Made by a program: the position numbers and the translations under genes
Part shown: in pieces, positions 2,460 through 20,000 of the stretch
Layout: every line of letters starts with the position of its first letter
How positions within the stretch are numbered: position 1 is the first letter of the stretch
The notes under the pieces: generated by a model
Database searches by the model: none
What the model saw: only the letters and a program-made list of their open reading frames with translations
What the model was told of the DNA's origin: nothing
Assembly (NCBI GenBank): GCA_009602735.1
Contig: WELA01001729.1
Span: forward strand, 106,827 to 126,826
Reading direction: 5' to 3'
DNA length: 20,000 bases
From: Mesotaenium endlicherianum
Taxonomy: Eukaryota

Positions 2460-3178
2460 TGAAATGAATCGCCTTACCAAATAGGCGATTAACAATTAAT
2501 AAAGATCTTTATATCAGCAAGTAATCTTATAGTATTTCCGTTAATTAGTTAAACGGCAAAGGACAATACACTAGCAGGGAATAATACTCGTAAGTCAAAT
2601 GCGAGTAAACTAGCATCAATGATGCAAATCAGTAAACTCATACATAAGCAAGGTTAGAAGACAGTGCGTATCAATGGCTTCTCGCCTTGGATTCAGAGTT
2701 CTCTCAGTAAGCTGTACAAGAGAGTTGGCCTCGTTTCCGAATGCCGAACTCGAGAGCAATGCCTAGCATATGTACATGGAATGAGTTTACTGTTCAACGG
2801 TCAGTGCGATGGCACCGCCTACCCGGGAGTTAACCACGTTGGTAGGACCTCGGTTAATCAAATCCACCGCCCATCTCTTATCATCCCGAATAGCCATCCA
2901 TCATGGGGATGTCATCTGGCCATTCATCTAGCGGGTCGTACTTAGATGCATATCAAGGCAGTTCGCTGCTACCGAGCACGGAAGTCAGCTGGCTGTCAAA
3001 GAATGTGTCAGCAAGCTGACTTAAGTTGACTTCAGCCTGTTGCTTTCGGCCGAGGCATTCAACTGATAATTATGTAAAGTCCAGCAGACTGATTATTAAC
3101 TAAAGTTCAGCAGGCTGAACTGAATTAACTATTAGATTTAAATGAATATTATATCCACTAATATACTGATTCATTACA
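2460..3178 (-). repeat. 3' LTR (719 bp)
   Basis: TGAAATGAATC...GATTCATTACA, an 11-bp terminal inverted repeat with 1 mismatch. Abuts the PPT. Confidence 0.95.
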
Positions 3179-3193
3179 ATCCCTCCAACTTAA
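3179..3193 (-). promoter_or_regulatory. Polypurine tract (plus-strand primer site)
   Basis: Minus strand reads TTAAGTTGGAGGGAT immediately before the TGTAATG start of the 3' LTR. Confidence 0.8.
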
Positions 3194-3291
3194 CATGTTG
3201 TCGCCTCGACAACATTAAACTGCAGAAATTTTAAATAAGGGAGCTGAACCTGACCAGCCTTCCTTACTGACTGCCTCTTCAGCGTGTCACC

Positions 3292-4968
3292 TTAAGGGGT
3301 TGTTCCTGGGGCTTCAGGGTCAGGAGACGGAGAGCTGGACCTAGATCTGGACAGCCCTCTAGGTCTGTCAGCTGGCCTTCTAAAGAACCCTGTTTGCTCT
3401 AAAGTTGGCCCTCGAGGAGAACGGAGGATGGTGGCCTGCTCTTCAACTATTTGGGTGTTGATTCCCACATAGACAGGCATTCCAGTAGGATGCTGAAATA
3501 CATTGGCTAGAGGTACATGCCCCTGAGCGGAGGGGGAGGCTGGCATACTTCTGGCCCACCCGCGTGTCTCTCTTCCGGCACCCCTGTCCTCTGGGGATTT
3601 CTGTCTGTGTCTGCTGCCCAGTACCGTCAGATCAGCTTCTTCCCCTGCTTGGGCAGGTGGGCTGGGGGAGCGAGCGCGGGGTCCAGTTGTCGCCATAACG
3701 GGGATCACATTCCACACACCTGATCGTGGTTCTTTAGGAAGTGCCACTGCCTGTCCCTGGGTATCCTGAGTACCTGCTGCTGATGCTTCTCCTCTGCCTT
3801 GTTCTTCTTCCTCATCCTCCTCATCCTCCTCCTCGGAGAGAGTAGGGGTCTCGTCCACTAAGTCGTCCTGCTCCCTAGTAGACATGGAGTAGTCTACCGA
3901 CCTCCCTTTCTTAGGGCGCGCTGGAGGTTGCTTGGCCTTCAGCCTACTGATATCTATCCGGCCTGCATTCTTTGCCCATTTGACAAAGGCATGCTTTCCC
4001 TTAGAGAAGTACTCTCTTCCCCTCCTCCTATGTTCCTTGGTCTCTGCATTCATATTGCTCAGGCATCCATTCAGCCTGGGGTCCCAAGGGGCAATGTGAG
4101 GTGGTAGGATGAGATAGCCGTCTAGGCCATAGTGGAAGTCATCCGGTTGGGCTCGGTCACACTCCTGCTTCTTATTTGTGACGGTCATCCACCTCCAGTC
4201 TGTTGGCTGCTGGTAGTACTGGGGTCCGTGCTCAGCCTTCCTCAGTTTACACGGGAACCAGTGGGGAGAGAACATCTGCTGTCCTGCTTCCCTGGCCAAG
4301 TACTCCCAGCTCCTTCTCTCAACTTCATTGTAAGCTGGCAGGAGTGTGAGGTAGAATACCGTATCCTTATAGCTATCGGGCCGCAAACTCACCATCCGGA
4401 TGAGTCTCTGATCTCCCACTATTCTCGGTATGGGGACCGGCTTGTCCTCTGAATCATCTGCGAGATACCGGGCCTGCTCTGCTGTATAGCCCACCATCTT
4501 AGCATAATCTTCGTAAAGGACCACGCCGGTGTGTGTCTCGATGTACCTGTCCAGTGCTGTAGCTCCTTCCTTCTGTAGCAGTGTTGTCTGTTCCAGCCTG
4601 TTGATCTCCTGGGCTGCCAGCAATGCTTCCTTCAGGTTATCGAAGTTTTGGCCACCCACCACAGTATACCTGTAAGTGGCCAAGCTCTTCTGCCTGTCCG
4701 CTTCAATCTTTTTTCTTTTCTCCTCGTCTGCCGCTGCCGCTTCTTCTTGCTGTTTCTTCTGTCTCTCCTCCTCAGCCTTCCTGAGGTTTTCCGCTTCCTG
4801 ATTCTTCTTCCTCTGTGCCTCTTCTGCCGCCTCTTGTTGCTTGCGGACCCTTTCTTGTTCTCTCCTGGTGAGGGACGTCGCCGCCAGCTCCTTCTGGTAT
4901 TGCTCCATTGTCCTCCTGGCTTCTTCTGCCTTGCGCTTTCTGTCCTCCTTTTGTGTGGTGGGCGCCAT
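3292..4968 (-). CDS. Extra ORF3 (~558 aa) of unknown function: E/K/R/Q-rich helical N-terminus, ~240-aa aromatic-rich core, acidic tract, low-complexity R/S/P tail
   Basis: Uninterrupted 1.7-kb ORF between pol and the PPT, in the same sense as gag-pol. The ORF-track start at 4992 is TTG. ATG 4968 follows a splice acceptor; an alternative ATG lies at 4977. A homologous decayed copy at 13437-14880 differs mostly at synonymous sites. Confidence 0.85.
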   Translation of the reverse strand: MAPTTQKEDRKRKAEEARRTMEQYQKELAATSLTRREQERVRKQQEAAEEAQRKKNQEAENLRKAEEERQKKQQEEAAAADEEKRKKIEADRQKSLATYRYTVVGGQNFDNLKEALLAAQEINRLEQTTLLQKEGATALDRYIETHTGVVLYEDYAKMVGYTAEQARYLADDSEDKPVPIPRIVGDQRLIRMVSLRPDSYKDTVFYLTLLPAYNEVERRSWEYLAREAGQQMFSPHWFPCKLRKAEHGPQYYQQPTDWRWMTVTNKKQECDRAQPDDFHYGLDGYLILPPHIAPWDPRLNGCLSNMNAETKEHRRRGREYFSKGKHAFVKWAKNAGRIDISRLKAKQPPARPKKGRSVDYSMSTREQDDLVDETPTLSEEEDEEDEEEEQGRGEASAAGTQDTQGQAVALPKEPRSGVWNVIPVMATTGPRARSPSPPAQAGEEADLTVLGSRHRQKSPEDRGAGRETRGWARSMPASPSAQGHVPLANVFQHPTGMPVYVGINTQIVEEQATILRSPRGPTLEQTGFFRRPADRPRGLSRSRSSSPSPDPEAPGTTP

Positions 4969-4999
4969 CCTGCACATGTAACCAGGGCACAAGTTAGTA
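4969..4999 (-). promoter_or_regulatory. Putative branch point and 3' splice acceptor for ORF3 subgenomic mRNA
   Basis: Minus strand: TACTAAC(4999-4993)-TTGTGCCCTGGTTACATG-TGCAG|G-ATG. There is no other AG between the branch point and the acceptor. TACTAAC is kept in the relic copy (13427-13433). Confidence 0.65.
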
Positions 5000-5173
5000 G
5001 GATATGGACCTTTGTCATAGGGATTGCAGGAAGTATGTTAGTATTTAGTATAGTGGCTTCGCTGCTGTTTACCTTACAGGATGATTGCTAAAAGTTGACG
5101 TAGTTGCGATGCGCTACACATAAACGTATGAGTGTGTTTTTATCGCTCTCGCTCACTAACTGTCATATATTTT

Positions 5174-5187
5174 CCCCTCCAACTTAA
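5174..5187 (-). promoter_or_regulatory. Internal duplicate of the PPT just downstream of pol
   Basis: 13 nt (5175-5187) are identical to 3181-3193 (TTAAGTTGGAGGG). Also present in the relic at ~13140-13152. Confidence 0.65.
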
Positions 5188-5235
5188 ATGGAGACAGGAC
5201 CGCCTGTCACCTTCCCGTGTCAACTGAAATGACAG

Positions 5236-8200
5236 TTATGGAGGGACTCCAGCGGCCCGAAGGTGGAACCGTGTCAACGCCCCTTTGGCATTGGTCAAGT
5301 GGTCCTTAAACTCCCAAGTGTCCCCAGAGGCATCGTAACCCTTCCATCGAATGAGGTATTTCATGACATATTTAGACGATCGACGGACCGAGCGAGCGTC
5401 TAAAATCTCATCGACCTCATATTCCTCCGGGTCGCCGTCCCGGACAGCGGGGACCGGTCCCGGTTGGACAGGGAACCGACCTGTGAACAGTGTATCACCT
5501 TTGGTGTACGGTTCCAGGAAGGAGACATTAAAGACCGGGTGCCCATTGTATTCAGTTGACATGTTCAATTTGTAAGCATTCTGACCGACACGACGGACCA
5601 CCAAATATGGACCGACCTTGACAGGGCCAAGCTTTTTCTTGACCACACCAGGGAGGTACAGGTGCTGAGAATGCAGTTTGACTAAATCCCCCTTGGAAAA
5701 TGTCAGTTCCCGACGGTGTTGATTAGCGTATTTTTGTTGGTTTTCTTGGGCCGTGTGCAAGTTTCGTTGGACTTCTGACAGGGTGTCAGCAAACTCCTGA
5801 GTTAACTGGAGGGAGACCGGGTTGTCAATCCCTTCAGGGTGAGTTAAAGATTCCCCTAGCACATCTAGAGGAGACTTAGGGACTCTACCCAGGCTGAGTT
5901 CAAAAGGAGTTTTGCCCGTTGACGCGTGCACCGCACTGTTGACCGCAAACTGAATTTGAGGCAACAGGTCATCCCAATTATCTTGTTTTTGGTTAATATA
6001 TGCTCTCAGCACCTCCTGCAGAACTCGGTTAGTTCTTTCAGTCTGCCCATCAGTCTGAGGGTGGTTTGCTGTGCTGAGCAGCTGTTTGACTCCCATTAAC
6101 CCCATTAAAGCTCTCCAGAACTTAGAGGTGAATTTTGAGTCTCTGTCTGAGATGATATTAGAAGGGAGCCCATGTTGGCATACTACATGGTTGTAAAACT
6201 GTCTCGCTGTTTCGAGTGCAGTCACTTTGACAGTTGTGGGGATAAAAATGACCATTTTTGTCAGTTTATCCACGACTACCAGTATTGAATCATGCCCGTT
6301 GGCAGTTCTTGGTAGTGAGACCACCCAGTCCATGGATATAGTTTCCCAGCGTCCCGCTGGGATGGGTAGCGGTTGCAAGAGACCTCCGGGTGGTGTGTGC
6401 CGAGACTTATTTCTCTGACACTGGTCACAGGACTTGACATATTTCAAGACCTCCCGGGGTAACCCCTCCCAATGATAATGTTTTGCCAGTTTGCCAACAG
6501 TTTTGGCCTGCCCCAAATGTCCACCCAGGAGACTGTCATGAGCTTGACTCAGTAAGAGAGACCTTATTTCCAAGTTATTAGGAATGACCAGCTTCAGCCT
6601 GCCTGAAGTGGTTTCAGTCACCCAGACCCCTCCCTTGAGCTTATACCCGAGTGCAGTAGCACGACACACACCAGTAGTGGGGCTGGGCTCAAATGTTGGG
6701 TCAGAAAGGTAGGCTTTCCTAAGTTGTTCAAGGAAGGACTTTTTCACCTTTAGTGAAGTGAGTGCACACAGGACTTTATCTACAGCATGCTGACTAAAGT
6801 TCCTTTCTTGCAAGTCAGGTCTTCTAGAGAGTGCATCAGCAGGATTCAACTTCCCTGGTTTGTAGTCGATCTGGACTTGGAACTGCTCCAGCATCTGGCT
6901 CCAGCGGTTCTCCCTCCTCGACAGCTTGGACTTCTTCTGAAAGTGGGTCAGAGCTAGATGATCTGTAATCACCTTAAAAGCTTTACCATGTAAGTATGCT
7001 CTCCACTGTTTGAGTACATGAATGATAGCTAGCAGCTCTTTATCATGCACTGAGTAATTAATCTCCGCTGGATTAAATTTCATAGACTCATACAACACAG
7101 GATGCCACTCCTGCCGTACCTTACCATCCTTTGTGGTTTTGTCAGCAGGCTGCAACAAAATAGCACCCATGGCAAAATCAGAGGCATCAGTAACCACCTG
7201 CACCGGTTTGCTGGGGTCATACACGGCTAGCACTGGGGCAGAACAAAGGGCATCTTTAAGGGTCTGGAAGGCAGCCTGCTGCTCTTCCCCCCACACATAC
7301 CCGATGTCTTTCTTAGTAAGGTCAGTCAGTTTACTGGCCTTTGTGGAATAATTCTCAATAAATCTCCTATAGTAGTTAGCCAACCCGAGGAAGGATCTAA
7401 CTTCAGAGACAGACTGTGGTACTGGCCAGTCCCTTATGGTCTGGACTTTCTTAGGATCCACACTGATGCCCTCTTTACTGACAACGTGGCCTAAGAATTC
7501 AATACTTTCCTTAAAGAAATCACACTTGCTCATTTTAGCATACAAGTGATTTTTCCGCAGAGTGTCCAGCACTTTCTTTAAGTGTTCAGTGTGCTGAGCT
7601 TCATCTTTAGAGAAAATTAAAATATCATCCAGGAAAACTTGCACAAACTTATCCAAATAAGGTCTGAAAATGTCATTCATAGCACCCATAAAGGTAGCAG
7701 GAGCATTAGTCAGTCCAAATGGCATCACGTTGAACTCATAGTGTCCATAACGTGTGCGGAAAGCAGTCTTGTGTTCATCCCCCTCAGCAATTCTGATTTG
7801 ATGATAACCACTCTTGAGATCTATCTTACTGAACACCTTAGCGCCAGACAGGGTATCAAGCAAGTCCTCGATTCTGGGTAAAGCATACTTGTTCTTTACT
7901 GTAATTCTGTTCAGGGCTCTGTAATCCACACACATCCGCATACTGCCATCCTTTTTCTTAACAAATAGGATAGGTGCGCCGTACGGTGATTTACTGGGAG
8001 AAATGTAACCATTTTCCTCCAGCTCTGCAATCTGTGTTTTCAACTCCTCGCTCTCCAAATAAGACAAGCCATAAGTGCGTTGCCAGGGTGGCTGGCTACC
8101 AGGTAATAGATCAATCCTATGATCTACTTCCCTTTTAGGGGGTAGTCCTGGAGGCATGTTAAACACATCAGTGTACTGAGCAACAATTTTTGCAGCAGTA

Positions 8201-9045
8201 GGGTGCTCCGGAGGGCTTACCTTTTTCTCAACCACTTCTTCAGGTTGAGGAGGTACCTCTCTTAGCAGCAGACAGAACATTCTGTCTTCCTTCTGGTTCC
8301 AGCTTTTGACGAACTCCATTGCATTCAGCAACTTGCATCCTTCTGGAAGCCTCTTCTTTTCCTTCATTTGCCATCCACACAGGACAAGAGGAAGAGCACT
8401 GGTGGGTGCCAAGTCAGTCTGCCCATCACTGGCTCCTCTCACTTTAACTGTACCTCTGCTCCAACACACTTCAGCTTGATGTCTATTAAGCCAGGACCTG
8501 CCTAGCACGAGATCATAAAAGCCAGTGTTGAGTACCTCAAATGTAAGCGTTTCAGTTAGAACTGCAATGCCAGAACCTAACTGGACCTCAATAGGCTTGG
8601 TTATAACTCCTCCCGGGATACTTGAGGCATCTCCAAGGAATATTTTTCTATTCCCTTGGGTGACAGTAGGCAGCCTTAGCCGCTTAACTAAGTCCTTGTG
8701 GATAAAAGTATGTGACGCCCCTCCGTCAACAAATGCCCTCACCTTCCTACCTGCAATCATGCAATGCAGTAGGATAGGGGGGACTGTCTTTTCCTGACTT
8801 TCGCATTGTTCTCCTGACGTAGCAAAGAAATGTTGGACATCAGGTGGAACAAGAGCATCCAGAGTGTGCACTCTCTGGACGTCTATATTACTGATGGTCT
8901 CCTTTATCTGTTTGTCAGGCATGCATAGTGAATCCAGTTCAGCAGGACCCATAATACCTGCTACGAGGGCAGCTAGTGACGACTCACTATCTCTAGCATC
9001 CTCACAGTCAGTAGACTGGATTACTGACTGTTGCTGTCTTTTAAA
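5236..9045 (-). CDS. pol: Pol polyprotein: aspartic protease, reverse transcriptase, RNase H, integrase, chromodomain (in the -1 frame relative to gag; first ATG at 8952)
   Basis: [11 protein letters not shown]...[68 protein letters not shown]6-H...C-X2-[21 protein letters not shown] motif. The frame is open from 9066. Confidence 0.96.
5260..5427 (-). other. Integrase C-terminal chromodomain (canonical aromatic-cage type)
   Basis: [12 protein letters not shown]...[22 protein letters not shown] retains the Y, W and Y cage positions. Confidence 0.9.
9004..9045 (-). promoter_or_regulatory. Putative -1 programmed ribosomal frameshift signal (gag to pol)
   Basis: Heptamer T TTA AAA (9045-9039) in gag phase, 7-nt spacer, then perfect 10-bp stem ACAGTCAGTA/TACTGACTGT with 8-nt loop (9031-9004). 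Pol is in the -1 frame and overlaps gag here. Confidence 0.85.
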
Positions 9046-10499
9046 GGCTGGTCTTTTCTCTCGACCTTAGGCAGGTGCTTGACCGGACACTGTTCTCTGT
9101 AGTGGCCTTTCTGCTGACAATGGTAGCAAGTAGATTTTGCTGAGGCTGGTCTCGGCTTAGTCCTACCACCACCCCTTCCATAGCCACCTCGAGAGGGACC
9201 ACCTCTACCTCTAGACTGAATAGCATTGTACTCATACTCATATTCATCACCCTGATTATCCTCAGCCTGGTCTCCTTCAACTGCATTGTAGGAACCGTGG
9301 GGCTTTTTGACAATCTTAGACACCAAAGCGTTACTCTGGCGCTTGTGATTGAACTGCTGCTGATCCCAGGCGTCAGCATCCTGGATCAAGTCAGCCAGTT
9401 TCTCATACTTTTTCTCAGCAAAATGACCAGAGACCTCGGATTTCAAGCCATACCTGAAGTATGCTATCCTATACCGTTCTGGCAAATCAGGCTGCTTCAT
9501 CATGTTCTCTTGGAACTTTTGAGCAAACTCAGCAACTGAAGTGGTCTGCTTCAGTGTCAGGGAGATCATCGCATAGATAGCTTTCTCCTGCTGGTTGATG
9601 ACATCAAACTTCTCATGCAACTTCTCGACAAACTCTACCCACGTAGGGTCACCGAGTTGCCGAGCCTTACGCTCTTCCTTCCAGTAAAGCCACCAGTCTG
9701 CGGCACTGCCTTTCAGTAGCGCACCGGTGTGCCTGACCTTCTCGTAATCTTGCAGTTCTGGGTAGTTCTCCAGCCACTGCTCAACATCCGCGAGAAACTT
9801 GATCAGGTAATATTTTCTGTTTCCCTCAGGATCATAGTCCTGGGGAGGTTTCGGCTTGGGCTTACTAGGCCCTCGGCCACCACCACTAGTGGTGTGAGAC
9901 CCCAGTTGGTCTCTGTCCCGGAGTAGGGACATTATGATTCTTTTGTCCTCCTGCTGGGACTGATACATGGTCGCCATTTGCGACTGCATCTGAACGAACA
10001 ATGCTCCCAAGTCTACATTTTGGGGTGGTAGATTAGCAAATGCAGCAGCAGCATTGGCATCTACTCGCTGAGTAGTGTCCTCAACAATCCCTCTTGCTCC
10101 TGCAGCAGCAATTCCTGCCGCATTCAGCCGGTCACGTATTTGACCTAGGGGTACATTGAGTTGTACGGCAGGAGGTGGGTTCAGAACATTGGCCCTTGAT
10201 GCCATAAGTTCTTCAACAGTGCGCTCGTCAGCTGGCTGTCCTTCCCTCCTTTGTATATCTTCAGCGGCCTTTGCTACTTGTTCAGCTTCTAGTCTGGCTA
10301 TCTCCTCCTCAGCTTGCTGAGCTGCGACTGAGGCAATAGCAGCTGCCTCATCTGCAGCCTCCCTAGCTGCAGTATCCGCTACTGCTTCCGAATAGGTACG
10401 GTTTCCCGCTACATGGCTTTCCGCCTGGTTTTCGACATTCTCGTTATCCTGGTTCTCCATGTCTCGGGAGTTGCTAGTTTGAGACCTTGTCCTTACCAT
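9021..10499 (-). CDS. gag: Gag polyprotein (492 aa)
   Basis: Retrotransposon capsid-like region ([36 protein letters not shown]), an RGG-rich segment, and a CCHC knuckle [14 protein letters not shown]. Confidence 0.95.
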
Positions 10500-10520: not shown

Positions 10521-10532
10521 GCTCCGATACCA
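10521..10532 (-). promoter_or_regulatory. Primer-binding site, tRNA-iMet type
   Basis: Minus strand TGGTATCGGAGC, 1 nt after the CA of the 5' LTR. One difference from the canonical plant TGGTATCAGAGC. Confidence 0.9.
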
Positions 10533-10533
10533 C

Positions 10534-11284
10534 TGAAATGAATCGACTTACCAAATAGGCGATTAACAATTAATAAAGATCTTTATATCAGCAAGTAATC
10601 TTTATGGTAATTTCCGTTAACTGGTTAAACGGCAAAGGACAATACACTAGCAGTGAATAATACTCGTAAGTCAAATGCGAGTAAACTAGCATCAATAATG
10701 CAAATCAGTAAACTCATACATAAGCAAGGTTAGAAGACAGTGCGTATCAATGGCTTCTCGCCTTGGATTCAGATCTCTCTCAGTAAGCTGTACAAGAGAG
10801 TTGGCCTCGTTTCCGAATGCCGAACTCGAGAGCAATGCCTAGCATATGTACATGGAATGAGTTTACTGTTCAACGGTCAGTGCGATGGCACCGCCTACCC
10901 GGGAGTTAACCACGTTGGTAGGACCTCGGTTAACCAAATCCACCGCCATCTCCCATCATCCCGAATAGCCATCCATCATGGGGATGTCATCTGGCCATTC
11001 ATCTAGCAGGTCGTACTTAGATGCATATCAAGGCAGTTCGCTGCTACCGAGCACGGAAGTCAGCTGGCTGTCAAAGAATGTGTCAGCAAGCTGACTTAAG
11101 TTGACTTCAGCCTGTTGCGTTCGGCCGAGTCATTAAACTGATAATTATGTAAAGTCCAGCAGACTGACTATTAACTAAAGTAAAGTCCAGCAGACTGACT
11201 ATTAACTAAAGTTCAGCAGGCTGATCTTAATTAACTATTATATTTAAATGAATATTATATCCACTAATATACTGATTCATTACA
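10534..11284 (-). repeat. 5' LTR (751 bp)
   Basis: TG...CA direct repeat of 2460-3178, adjacent to the PBS. Contains a private 31-bp tandem duplication. Confidence 0.95.
11149..11212. repeat. 31-bp perfect tandem duplication in the U3 part of the 5' LTR
   Basis: TAAAGTCCAGCAGACTGACTATTAACTAAAG x2. Single copy in the other two LTRs. Confidence 0.95.
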
Positions 11285-13090
11285 CCTATGCTTTCTTGTT
11301 CTTGCTGTGTATGACTCCAGTAAACCTGTGCAGGTGGTTACTGACGTTTTTTACTTTGCCATGGGTGCTATTTTGTTACAACCTGCTGACAAACCACAAA
11401 GGATTTTTTATTTAGTGCATGATAAGAAGCTGTTGGCAATTATTAATGTCCTCAAACAGTGGAGAGCACACTTACATGATAAGGCTTTCAAGGTGTCAAC
11501 AGAAATCTGGCTCTGACTCATTTTTTAGTGGAATTCCAAGCTGTCGAGGAGGGAGGATTGCTGGAGCTAGATGCTGGAGCAGAACCAAATCCAGATCGAC
11601 TACAAACCAGGGAAGTTGAATCCTGCTGATGCACTCTCTAAAAGACCTGACCTGCAAGAAAGGAACTCTAATCAGCATGCTGTAGATAAAGTTATTGGTA
11701 ATCACGTCACTTAAGGTGAAAAATCCCTTATCTTGAATAACTTAGAAAAGCCTAGTTTTCTAGCCCAACATTTGAGCCCAGCCAAACAGTTGGTGTGTGT
11801 CCCGCTACTTCACTCGGTTGTAGGCTGAAAAGAGGGGTCTGGGTAATTAAACTTAGGAAGGCTCAAGTAGGTGATTCCTAATAACTTGGAATTAAGGTCT
11901 TTATTCCTTAGTCACGCTCATGACAGTTTACTGGGTGGACATTTGGGGCAGGCCAAAATTGTGGGCATATTGGCAAACTTTACCACTGGGAAGGGTTGCC
12001 TCGAGAGGTCTTTAAATATGTTAGGTCCTGTGATCCTCGTCAAATAATTAAGTCTAGACACACACCATCCGGGGGGCTATTGCAACCACTATCTATCCCA
12101 GCTGGACGATGAGACACCATATCCATGGACTGGGTGATAACACTACCAAGAACTGCCAATGGGCATGATTCTATACTGGTAATAGTGGATAAATTGACAA
12201 AAATGGTCATTTTCATCCTCACAATTGTCAAGGTGACTGCACTCAAAACTGCGAGACAGTTGTATAACCATCTTTGCCAATATGGATTACTCTCCAATAT
12301 CATCTCAGACAGAGACTCAAAGTTTACCTCCAAGTCCTGAAGAGCCTTAATGGGGTTGATGGGAGTCAAACAATTGCTCAGCACAACAAACCACCCTTAC
12401 ACTGCTGTGCAAACTAAAAGAACTAATCAAATTTTGCAGGAGGTGCCGAGAACTTATATTAATACAAGATAATTGGGATGACTTGAAATTGAATTTGCGG
12501 TTAACAATGCGGTGCATGCGTCAACGGGAAAGACTCCTTTTGAACTCCGTCTGGGTAGGGTCCCTAAGTCTCCTTTAGATGTGGTAGAGGAGTCTTTAAC
12601 TCATCCTTAGAAGATTGACAATCCGGTGTTTCTCCAGTCAACTCAGGAATTTGCTGACCCCCTGTTTGAAGTCCAGCAGAACTTGTACAAAGCACAAGAA
12701 ACCCAATTAAAATATGCCAATCAACACCATCGGGAGCTGACATTGTCTAAGGACGATTTGGTCAAACTGCTTTCTCAACACCCGTACCTGCCTGGTGTGG
12801 TCAAGAAAAAGCTGGGGCCAGTCTGGATGGGTCCATACTTGGTGGTACGCCAAGTTGGTCAGAATGCTTACAAACTGCACATGTCAGCGGAATATAAGGG
12901 TCACTCCGTCTTTAATGTCTCTTTTCTAGAACCATACATCAAGGGTGACACAGTGTTCACAGGTCGGTTACCTGTGCAACCAAAACCAGTCCCCGCTATT
13001 GGAGACACTTGGGAATACAAAGACCATTTGGTCAACGCAAAAGGGGCGTTGAAATGTTTCTATGTCTAGGAAGCCGATAGACCACCTTAA
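11285..13090 (+). pseudogene. pol: Decayed family-1 pol (RNase H-integrase; chromodomain core deleted)
   Basis: Fragments [31 protein letters not shown] and KKKLGPVWMGPYLV match the intact pol. Many stops, frameshifts and deletions; PVPAI joins directly to GDTWE. Confidence 0.92.
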
Positions 13091-13436
13091 CTGCCATTTC
13101 AATAGACATGGGAAGGTGACAGGGCGGTTGTTTCTCCATTTAAGTTGGAGGGAAATGTGACAGTTAAGTGTCACCATAGTGACAGATGTGACAACCAGGC
13201 CCACCTTGAGCAAAGTTGGAGGGTGTCCACCACTTGGAAGGAGGGAGGGACCAGTACATGAACAAATCACTCAACTCACCCTGCACACACATACCTTCGT
13301 TTATTCTCATCACGCTACAGCTCAATTAACTCCTAGTACCCACTCTGTAGAATAAGGGAACAACTCTGCTGTAATAATACAAACTTACTCCTCTTTCTGC
13401 ATCTATTGTGACAATGAATGATATCCTACTAACTTG

Positions 13437-14880
13437 CTGCGGAGGAAGAAAGAAAGAAGGAGGAAGCTAAAAGGCAGAAGAGCGTGGCCACTTACAGATA
13501 TACTGTGGTGGATGGCCAAATCTTTGATAATGTGAAGGAGACACTACTGGCAGTCCAGGATATTAATCGAATTGCCAAGCAAACAGTGTTGCGGAAGCAG
13601 GGAGCTGAAGCTCGGGATAGGTATATTGAGACACGCACTGGGGTTGTCCTCTACAAAGATTATGCCAAGATGGTGGGGTATATAGCGGAGCAGGCGCGGT
13701 TCTTTGCTGATAACTTGGAAGATAAGCCAGTACCAGTACCTGGCATAGTGGAGGATCAGTGGCTCATCGAAATGGTGAGCATGCAGCCCGATGGCTTTAA
13801 CGATGTCTTGTTTTCCCAGACGTTGCTGCCAGCCTACAATGAAGTTGAGAGAAGGAGCTGGGAGTACTTGGCCAAGAAAACACGACAGCAGATGTTCTCT
13901 CCCCATGTTCCCTTGTAAGCTGAAAAATGCTAAACATGGGCCACAATACTACCAGCAACCTACAAACTGGAGGTGGATGATCGTCCCTAACAGGAAGCAG
14001 CACTGTGAACGGGCCCACCCGGATGATTTCCACTATGGGCTGGACGGTTAGCTTATCCTGCCACCTCACATTGCTCTTTGGGACTTCAGGCTTAATGGAT
14101 GCCCGAGTAACATGAATGAGAAAACCAAGGAGAACAAGAGGAGAGGACAGGACTACTTCTCTAAGGGGAAGTATGCCTTTGTTAAATGGGCAAAGAATGC
14201 AGGCTGGATAGATATCAGCAAGTTGAAGGCCAAGCAACCCCCAGCTCATCCTAACAAAGGGGGGTCACTAGATTTCTCCATGTCTACCAGGGAGCAGGAT
14301 AACTTGGTAGATGAGACCCCTACCCTCTCTGAGGAGAAGGATGAGGAGGATGAGGAGGATGAGGAAGCGGAACAGGGCAGGGGAGAAGCATAAACCTCTG
14401 GAGCTCAAGAGATCCGGGGACAGGCAGAGGCAGGAACTCCTAGGGGGCCAAGAGCAGGAGGAAGGACTGTGACTCCTACTGTGGAGACAACGGTACCTCG
14501 AGCTCGATCTCCCGGCCCACCTGCCCAAGCAAAGGAAGAGGCAGAGCTGACTGTACTTGGTAGCAGAGAGAGGCAGAAATCCCCAGAGGACAGAGCTCCT
14601 AGAAGTGGAACTCGCGGTGTGGCCAGAGGTATGCTAGCCACCCCCTCCAGTCAGGGATGTGTGCCCCTTGCCAATGTATTTTAGCATCCTACTGGTTTGC
14701 CTGTCTATGTGGGAATCAACATCCAGGAGGTTGAAGAGCAGGCTGCAATCCTCCGTTCCCCTTGTGGCCCCACTTTAGAGCAGACAGGGTTCTTCAGGAG
14801 GCCAGTCGACAGAACTAGAGGGATGTCCAGGTCTAGGTCCAGATCTCAGTCCCCTGATCCTGGAGCCCCAAGAACATCAT
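13437..14880 (+). pseudogene. Decayed copy of ORF3 (N-terminus deleted)
   Basis: ATYRYTVV, LLPAYNEVERRSWEYLA, HGPQYYQQPT, PDDFHYGLDG, AFVKWAKNAG and GPTLEQTGFFRRP match 3292-4968. Frameshift at ~13905 and stops at 14049, 14391 and 14682. Confidence 0.9.
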
Positions 14881-15009
14881 TTGAAACCATCCTCCGGTCA
14901 AGCCTTGCTGGGGGTCTCTCTGTTTGCTCTCCGCAAAGGTAGTGGACTGAGGGTGGAGGTGACAGTTTACTGCCATTAGTGATCCCCATAGTGATCTCCA
15001 TAACAGTGT

Positions 15010-16265
15010 TGAAACTGGCTGACTTGATCCAGGATGCTGATGCCTAGGATCAGCAGCAGTTCAATCACAAGCGCCAGAGTAATGCTTTGGTGTCTAAGAT
15101 TGTCAAAAAGCCATATGGTTCCTACAATGCAATTGAAGGAGATCAGGCTGAGGACGATGAGAGTAATGAGTACAAATATGAATATAATGCTATGCTGTCT
15201 AGAAGGAGAGGTGGACACTCTCGAGGTGGTTATGGAAGAGGTGGTGGCATGACTAAGCCGAGACCAGCCTCAGCAAAACCTATTTGCTACCATTTCCAGA
15301 AGTTTGGCCACTACAGAGAGCAGTGTCCTAGCAAGCACCTTCCAAAGGTCAAGAGAAAAGATCAGTCCTCAAAAGATAGCAACAGTCAGTAATTCAGATT
15401 ATTGACACTGAAAATGCTAGAGATAGTGAGTCGTCACTAGCTTCCCTCGTAGCAGGTATTATGGGTCCTGCTAAATTGGATTTACTATGCATGCTTGGCA
15501 AATAGATAAAGGAGACTTTCAACAATATAGATTCCCAGAGAGTGCAAACTCTGGATGATCTTGTGTTACCTGATGTCCAACATTTCTTTGCTAAGTCAAG
15601 AGAACATTGCGAAAGTCAGGAAAAGTCAGATTCCCTATCCTACTGCATTGTATGATTGCAGGTAGGAAGGTGAGGGCATTTGTTGACGGAGGGGCGTCAT
15701 ATACTTTTATCCATAAGGACTAAGTTAAGCGGCTAAGGCTGCCTACTGTCACCCAAGGGAACAGAAAAATATTCCTTGAACATGCCTCAAGTATCTCAGG
15801 AGGAGTTATAACCAAGCCTATTGGGGTTCGGATAGGTTTTGGCATTGCGGTCTAACTGAAACGCTTACATTTGACGTACTCAACACTGGGTTTTATGATC
15901 TTGTGCTAGGCAAGTTTTGGCTTAACAGACATCAAGTCAAAATGTGTTGGAGCAGAGGTACAGTTGAACTGAGAGGAGCCAGTGATTGGCAGACTAACTT
16001 GGCACCCACCAGTACTCTTCCTCTTGTCCTGTATGGATGGCAAACGAAGGAAAAGGAGAGGCTTCCAGAAGGATGCAAATTGCTGAATGCAATGGAGTTC
16101 ATCGAAAGTTGGAACCAGAAGGAAGACATAATGTTCTGTCTGCTGCTAAAAGAGGTACCTCCTCAACCTGAAGAAGTGGTTGAGAAAAAAGATAAGCCCT
16201 CTAGAGCTCTCTACTGTTGCAAAAATTGTTGCTCAGTGTATGATGTTTTTAATATGCCTCCAGGA
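15010..16265 (+). pseudogene. Decayed family-1 gag C-terminus, protease and linker
   Basis: [17 protein letters not shown], degenerate knuckle CYHFQKFGHYREQC, FVDGGAS and WSRGTV match 9400-8150 of the intact element. Multiple stops. Confidence 0.9.
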
Positions 16266-18841: not shown

Positions 18842-19106
18842 TGTGAAAGGGGCAAAGTGCCCTAGTGGAAGCGTAGTAACTCACGAGGAAAAAAACTAGT
18901 TGCAATCATGTCAAAGAGTGCAGCGGCACATCACTAAGAAAACTTAGGAAAAATACTCAACATTTGAGTAACAAGAAACTGCTCACAAATGTACTAGGAT
19001 GAAAGGCCTTGTCATTACAAACCCGTAGAAATTTACAGAAGTGAAACTTGATAAGAAACAAGGAAGTTATGCCTATTTATAATTTTCTGCCTAAGTGCTC
19101 CTCCCT

Positions 19107-20000
19107 AGAGAAGAATGGCTCCCACTGCAAAATTTGATGCGTCCGTAATGATGGTAAAAGGAAGCTCTGGACTTGCAATTGCCAACACAGGTGCCTGTGT
19201 CAACAGCTCCTTAATCTTCTCAAATGCTTGCTGCTCCTTGTTACCCCATAGCCACTTCTCCTGCTTCTTCAACATGTCCGTCAGCGGTGCACATACCTTG
19301 GCAAATCCTTCAATGAAACGTCGATAATATTTCGCCATGCCGAGGAAACTCCTGAGTTGATGAATTTTAGCAGGTACCGGCCAATCTCTGACTCCTTGCA
19401 CCTTCTTCTGCTCCACCTTGACTCCTTCGGCTCCCACTATGTGCCCAAGAAACTCAACCTCCTTGAGACAGAAGTTGCACTTGCTCATCTTCCCATAAAC
19501 TTCTGATCTCTCAAGACCTCCAACATCTTCCTCAGATGCTCCACATGCTCTTCCAAGGTCTTTGAATAGATCAGGATGTCGTCCAAAAATAGCACCACAA
19601 ACTGGTCCAAGTAGGGTCTGAAGATACTATGTATGAGTCCCATGAATGTTGCAGGTGCATTAGTCAATCCAAAAGGCATGACCGTGAACTCAAATAAACC
19701 ATAGCGAGTCCTGAAAGCAGTCTTCTGAACGTCTGCTTCCGCAATCCGTACCTGGTGATAGCCACTCCTCAAATCGATCTTCAAGAAATACTTCGCCCCG
19801 ACAAGCCTGTCAATTAACTCGTCCACTCGTGGAAGTGGGTACCTGTTCTTGATGGTGACCTTGTTCAGCGCCCGGTAGTTGACACACATCCTCATAGTCC
19901 CATCCTTCTTCTTCACAAATAAGACTGGTGCTGCAAATGGAGACTCGCTGGGTCGGATGAATCCCTTCTCCAACAACTCTGTCAGCTGCTTCTTCAACTC
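19107..20000 (-). pseudogene. pol: Ty3/gypsy family-2 RT to start of RNase H (second copy; runs off the window)
   Basis: [31 protein letters not shown] and TDASNFAVGAILL. 1-nt deletion frameshift near 19500. Highly similar to 1150-1896. Confidence 0.92.

Follow-up and report, generated by a model that had tools for sequence, protein, structure and literature searches.

Extra open reading frames between pol and the 3′ LTR

Sense-oriented extra open reading frames (ORFs) situated between pol and the 3′ LTR of retrotransposons were termed aORF-3S by Vicient and Casacuberta (2020, PMC7264820) and eORF-3′F by Neumann et al. (2019, PMC6317226). The survey of Neumann et al. reports a CDD match for just 21.4% of eORF proteins and raises the question of whether such ORFs function. 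Its REXdb summary table gives eORF-3′F among the chromoviruses for Tekay alone (18%); Tcn1, Chlamyvir and Galadriel are marked by dashes, behind which rare cases could hide (PMC6317226). An accessory protein has been described in Cer1 of C. elegans, where CERV, once mistaken for env, is made from a spliced mRNA and is needed for nuclear export of Cer1 genomic RNA (PMC10309623).

The window considered here is a stretch of 20,000 nucleotides from Mesotaenium endlicherianum (assembly GCA_009602735.1, contig WELA01001729.1, positions 106,827 to 126,826), within which a Ty3/gypsy chromovirus carries a sense extra ORF, denoted ORF3, between pol and its 3′ LTR. As described for aORF-3S and eORF-3′F, ORF3 lies in this place and orientation, is separate from pol with no tandem array evident, exceeds 250 codons (558 codons, where at least 250 are required), is present across copies and has no database match; unlike the env-like aORF-3S examples in those accounts, it has no transmembrane stretch (PMC7264820, PMC6317226). 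ORF3 is a new orphan member of an extra-ORF class, and the surprise is limited because that class is already known. A search of the literature available without subscription found no published listing tied to this ORF3 family, which is a weak negative. What the locus adds is one extra ORF whose constraint, measured alongside a neutral control from the same window, is as tight as that of pol, in a type of chromovirus for which the summary table of Neumann et al. lists none (PMC6317226).

The element and its decayed relative

The element is near-intact, 8.8 kb long and on the minus strand, in the order 5′ LTR, gag, pol, ORF3, 3′ LTR. Its features are as follows.

10534..11284, minus strand: 5′ LTR (TG...CA), with a GTAAGT donor-like site inside at 10551
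10521..10532, minus strand: PBS-like motif, resembling the tRNA-Met type
9021..10499, minus strand: gag, with Ty3 capsid and zinc knuckle (Pfam); its end overlaps the pol frame
5236..9066, minus strand: pol, with protease, RT, RNase H, integrase and chromodomain (Pfam)
4969..5235, minus strand: pol–ORF3 spacer, with a polypurine-tract-like motif at 5185 and TACTAAC at 5043 and 4999
3292..4968, minus strand: intact ORF3, 558 codons, ATG at 4968, frame open from 5037
2460..3178, minus strand: 3′ LTR, with the terminal polypurine tract just upstream, at about 3191–3180

The two LTRs are identical at 699 of 718 columns, with one further 31-nt indel, so this copy is young. Where a 5-bp target site duplication would be expected, the bases flanking the element, read by eye, agree at three of five positions; the copy may be rearranged. 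Paired TG...CA LTRs with adjacent PBS-like and PPT-like motifs, gag followed by PR-RT-RH-IN, and a C-terminal chromodomain identify a chromovirus. The chromodomain at the end of integrase matches PF00385 above the cut-off (E 2e-8) and has the Y-W-Y aromatic residues, and the best named matches of pol are algal proteins from Closterium and Haematococcus (43–49%). Likened by these residues and by gene order, the element resembles Tcn1, Chlamyvir, Galadriel and their non-plant relatives; it differs from those clades, which average 6.4–6.7 kb, in its 8.8 kb length and its extra ORF, and the aromatic-cage clades are the ones dashed for eORF-3′F in the REXdb summary table, whereas this element has both the cage residues and ORF3 (PMC6317226).

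Pol is in the −1 frame relative to gag. Within the overlap, at about 9045–9035 on the minus strand, is a T TTA AAA heptamer, a candidate frameshift site.

A decayed relative of the element occupies 11298–14882 on the plus strand, extending from RNase H through ORF3 at 79–83% identity, with more relics beyond.

11298..13090, plus strand: relic pol, RNase H to the integrase end, used as comparator; 83% identity, 9 stops in 591 codons
13090..13441, plus strand: relic pol–ORF3 spacer, with polypurine-tract-like motifs at 13142 and 13213 and TACTAAC kept at 13427
13442..14882, plus strand: relic ORF3, residues 82–558; 79% DNA identity over 1437 nt
13616..13699, plus strand: 28 codons of the relic ORF3 that were noticed first, paired with 4551–4468 (minus strand) of the intact ORF3

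The relic ORF3 is without residues 1–81 and without the ATG. It is damaged by premature stops at residues 285, 396 and 492 and by one 2-nt frameshift near residue 237, and it has two in-frame insertions of 9 and 3 nt.

Although the initial annotation described the spacers of the two copies as largely unalignable, they are homologous and rich in indels, with 183 of 236 aligned columns identical. The 3′ part has 98 of 140 positions identical and scores 80, compared to a mean of 17.7 for shuffled sequences (sd 8.2, max 43, n=500).

An 11-base polypurine-tract-like motif occurs on the minus strand both after pol (5185) and before the 3′ LTR (3191), and the relic has the same 11 bases twice after pol, at 13142 and 13213 on the plus strand. 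The additional motif after pol could be a scar of capture or a second plus-strand primer.

Purifying selection on ORF3

The initial annotation based its claim of protein-level purifying selection on the 28 codons, and its count is reproduced: 14 of the 28 differ, by a single change each, 11 synonymous and three non-synonymous, where neutrality would make 0.27 of the changes synonymous (kappa 3; P = 8e-5). This stretch is, however, a flattering one, as three or fewer amino-acid changes occur in just 5% of the 420 gap-free 28-codon windows, for which the median is seven.

The claim holds over the ORF as a whole. The pairwise codon model GY94 with F3x4 was applied to intact ORF3 and the relic projected onto its frame, dropping gapped and stop codons, which keeps 472 of 475 aligned codons; residues 1–81, missing in the relic, lie outside. 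Between the two copies dN is 0.156 and dS 0.598, giving a dN/dS of 0.26 (95% CI 0.20–0.34), significantly below 1 (LRT 93, p 4e-22), and the differences at codon positions 1, 2 and 3 number 73, 60 and 160. The ratio is 0.28 when the 28 codons are removed and likewise 0.28 when codons touching CpG are removed, and transversions alone affect 36 of 191 four-fold sites compared to 38 of 877 zero-fold sites (p 3e-10). Each region has a ratio below 1, namely 0.18 for residues 82–345, 0.09 for 346–400 and 0.48 for 401–558. For the relic pol the value is 0.31 (582 codons), and a common value for pol and ORF3 is not rejected (p 0.36).

As a negative control, the 5′ part of pol compared with another relic in the same window gives a dN/dS of 1.00 (CI 0.62–1.67), and the method therefore does not return low ratios by default. 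The intact frame has no stop in 475 codons, while the other five frames have 9–29, and in simulations of decay without selection, with 0.3 changes per site, the frame stayed open in 0 of 2000 trials. The stops of the relic imply that it gathered 0.05–0.13 changes per site neutrally after it died, and because of these, 0.26 overstates the ratio in the living lineages. ORF3 is, with near certainty, a real selected gene that is constrained as strongly as pol.

Variation among living copies

At least half of the ORF3 words are found in 20 DNA runs from seven studies and under five organism labels. Contigs of four runs, which carry the organism labels A, C, D and E and were chosen through matches to the ORF3 stretch itself, cover 30 of 30 bins of 3000–5450. 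ORF3 is covered in all four of the runs examined, and its dN/dS against the relic is like that of pol, as expected for an aORF-3S present across its family. The family is highly repeated, with 12,772 contigs of run X1 aligned to the region, though contig depth is not taken here as copy number. Among the 15 of 77 joints listed, none of high depth skips ORF3.

Variants were taken from the best-supported 40 of 130 rows, a small sample of which 27 lie in ORF3. Within these 40, the 17 ORF3 variants shared among copies comprise 12 synonymous and five non-synonymous changes (P 2e-4 versus neutral), two of the five being in the same codon but each entering the count, whereas the 10 private ones comprise two synonymous and eight non-synonymous, as under neutrality (Fisher p 0.018 for the shared versus private synonymous share). 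Private here means that at least 90% of the depth of run X1 differs from the copy in the window, so that these are either private changes or errors in that copy. Residues 1–81 are covered by only four variant rows. As the shared variants are mostly synonymous, selection acts in the replicating lineage, which argues against selection solely before capture. With the open frame and the whole-ORF dN/dS, this bears out the earlier suggestion that ORF3 is a real coding gene in the active lineage and not captured junk.

A loose end at 5174 in runs X4, X8 and X9 resembles, by eye, the start of the relic's spacer, which suggests that the sister subfamily of the relic also occurs in organisms C, D and E.

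The ORF3 protein

The predicted protein has a charged helix at about residues 5–95, an aromatic-rich core at about 95–345, a basic patch at 349–356, an acidic run at about 365–392 and a Pro/Ser/Arg-rich C-terminal tail with a conserved block near 482–535. Residues 5–95 are confidently predicted as helix and are highly charged. A coiled coil is doubtful for this segment, in which just six of 91 residues are L, I, V, M or F; given so few hydrophobic residues and 25 opposite-charge pairs at i,i+4, a charged single helix fits better. No transmembrane stretch was found in ORF3, where the maximum 19-residue hydropathy is 0.73 and the N-terminus is charged and without a signal peptide. NLS-like patterns occur at 10, 71–87 and 349, and NES-like patterns are present too, both kinds being common in basic proteins. 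AlphaFold2 run without an alignment gave pLDDT values of 42 and 35, with low confidence outside the N-terminal helix and no confident fold for the core.

Homologues of ORF3 were found neither by word-indexed searches with the full protein (7989 candidates) or with the core against longer proteins (900 candidates), nor by phmmer on 1.84 billion representatives, nor in the protein atlas, in metagenome and viral contigs or alongside the 120 homologues of pol. Pfam gave nothing at cut-off, and the best match among PDB sequences had E 0.7. Judged by its sequence, the ORF3 product, an orphan, is likely to be a soluble accessory protein.

A second, arginine-rich frame of 151 codons with a hydrophobic start overlaps at 4632–5087 on the minus strand, and is probably a shifted reading of the charged helix of ORF3.

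Candidate splice signals and expression

The ORF3 ATG is 267 nt downstream of the pol stop, and because a downstream ORF would be unreachable by scanning on the gag-pol message, ORF3 should need an expression route of its own. TACTAAC, the branch-point consensus, occurs just twice on the minus strand of the window, at 5043 and 4999, and both occurrences are in the pol–ORF3 spacer (composition-based P 3e-4 for the pair over 232 nt, the motif having been picked after it was seen). The first AG follows 28 nt after the motif at 5043 and 24 nt after that at 4999, and a single base separates the latter AG from the ORF3 ATG (context G-ATG-G). The second TACTAAC is kept in the relic within a 16-nt exact match, which alone is not significant (P 0.12). 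The element has 11 donor-like matches, including one in the 5′ LTR (10551) and two in gag (10496 and 9670). The motifs before the ATG may point to a spliced ORF3 mRNA, to which we give an even chance.

In three polyA runs, of which 6–12% each was read, no RNA read lay over 3250–5139 and no ORF3 splice joint was found. This is a weak test, since just 4, 6 and 4 reads of these runs matched the element at ≥99% identity and the young family is seemingly silent there. PolyA reads of diverged copies lie over 5140–5950 and the LTR; at the end of pol the first mate of most pairs maps to the minus strand, which in most stranded libraries would mean antisense transcripts.

The spacer was also considered as a decayed LTR supplying a promoter, for which comparison with the present LTR gives no support (P 0.85 and 0.25). 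The post-pol and post-ORF3 sequences of the relic are weakly alike (P 0.01–0.02 among six tests), a likeness that is not relied on here.

Possible roles of ORF3

The reading that we prefer, tentatively and at somewhat less than even odds, is of a soluble accessory protein, made from a spliced message, whose site of action would be the nucleus and whose target would be the RNA of the element itself. It starts from the intact frame, the low dN/dS and the constant position of ORF3, after pol and before the 3′ LTR, in two diverged lineages. A spliced subgenomic message, with donors in the 5′ LTR or gag and acceptor AGs just before the ATG, would be translated into ORF3; the protein could then enter the nucleus by means of its basic clusters, where, by analogy with CERV and Rev, it might let the unspliced genome exit or escape host control. 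Such an export or escape factor is proposed because an element that splices needs help for its unspliced genome. The nuclear RNA-handling role, an argument from analogy, is if anything slightly more tentative. CERV shares exons with gag and was demonstrated experimentally, while ORF3 is known from its sequence, so the likeness is a functional analogy (PMC10309623), and no sequence or structural link of ORF3 to CERV or Rev emerged, with both structure models of low confidence outside the N-terminal helix. In its fullest form, ORF3 would be a new protein family and a Rev/CERV-like regulator from a spliced message that exports or protects unspliced RNA, an independent retrovirus-style invention in a chromovirus, which we consider unlikely. 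An intact gene in a recently active family, with defined candidate splice sites, makes expression, localisation and RNA binding directly testable.

ORF3 might instead partner the virus-like particle, structurally or in the cytoplasm, and could be made as a Gag–ORF3 fusion created by splicing; to this we assign a low probability. The donor-like site at 9670 in gag follows 276 codons and is in phase 1, as is the first acceptor at 5010/5009, across which the ORF3 frame is open, and the long charged helix could serve as a spacer. The phase match has, however, a one-in-three chance of arising, the reads examined from the three polyA runs show no such junction, and a fusion of this kind would interrupt the match to capsid (248–391 in Pfam-search numbering).

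Transposon anti-silencing proteins provide the model for another nuclear function, in which ORF3 would counter host silencing at the level of chromatin. The basic patch, the NLS-like motifs and the conserved acidic run (dN/dS 0.09 across residues 346–400) are consistent with this, as is the abundance of the family in run X1. ORF3 has no domain match, though, and is conserved like pol instead of fast-changing, as is often expected in host conflict, and this analogy too is improbable.

Capture of a host gene whose synonymous excess predates its arrival, and which has been a passenger since, is very unlikely and largely refuted by the current copies, whose shared variants are still mostly synonymous. 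Such an event could have left the second polypurine-tract-like motif, just behind pol, as its scar, and ORF3 has a GC3 of 0.58 compared to 0.48–0.50 in pol and gag and a dS of 0.60 compared to 0.44 in pol; against this, its CpG depletion is like that of pol (0.42 versus 0.41), it has the same place and a homologous spacer in both lineages, and no cellular homologue was found by the word-indexed and phmmer searches. An env-like membrane protein would share the place, orientation and possibly the spliced expression reported for barley Bagy2 (PMC7264820), but the absence of any hydrophobic segment and an N-terminus that is highly charged and lacks a signal peptide make this harder still to entertain. 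An origin of the third-position excess in an antisense gene, in CpG decay or in the alignment has the slightest chance of all and is refuted, as the antisense frame sharing third positions, with a dN/dS of 0.41, has 17 stops in the intact copy, and the signal holds without CpG codons, with transversions alone and beside the control of 1.00.

Surroundings of the element

Retrotransposons are nested throughout the window, which is interrupted near 1900–2310 by about 430 bases of N. The element is flanked, at 1–723, 886–2508 and 19105–20000 (minus strand), by one more LTR, the third, with 92% identity to the 3′ LTR, and by fragments from a second gypsy family whose RT shows 69% DNA identity. A second relic at 15009–16265 on the plus strand has a dN/dS of 0.29 and dS of 0.34 in the end of gag, compared to 1.00 and 0.11 in the adjoining start of pol, and is possibly a recombinant, or its gag end has a faster turnover.
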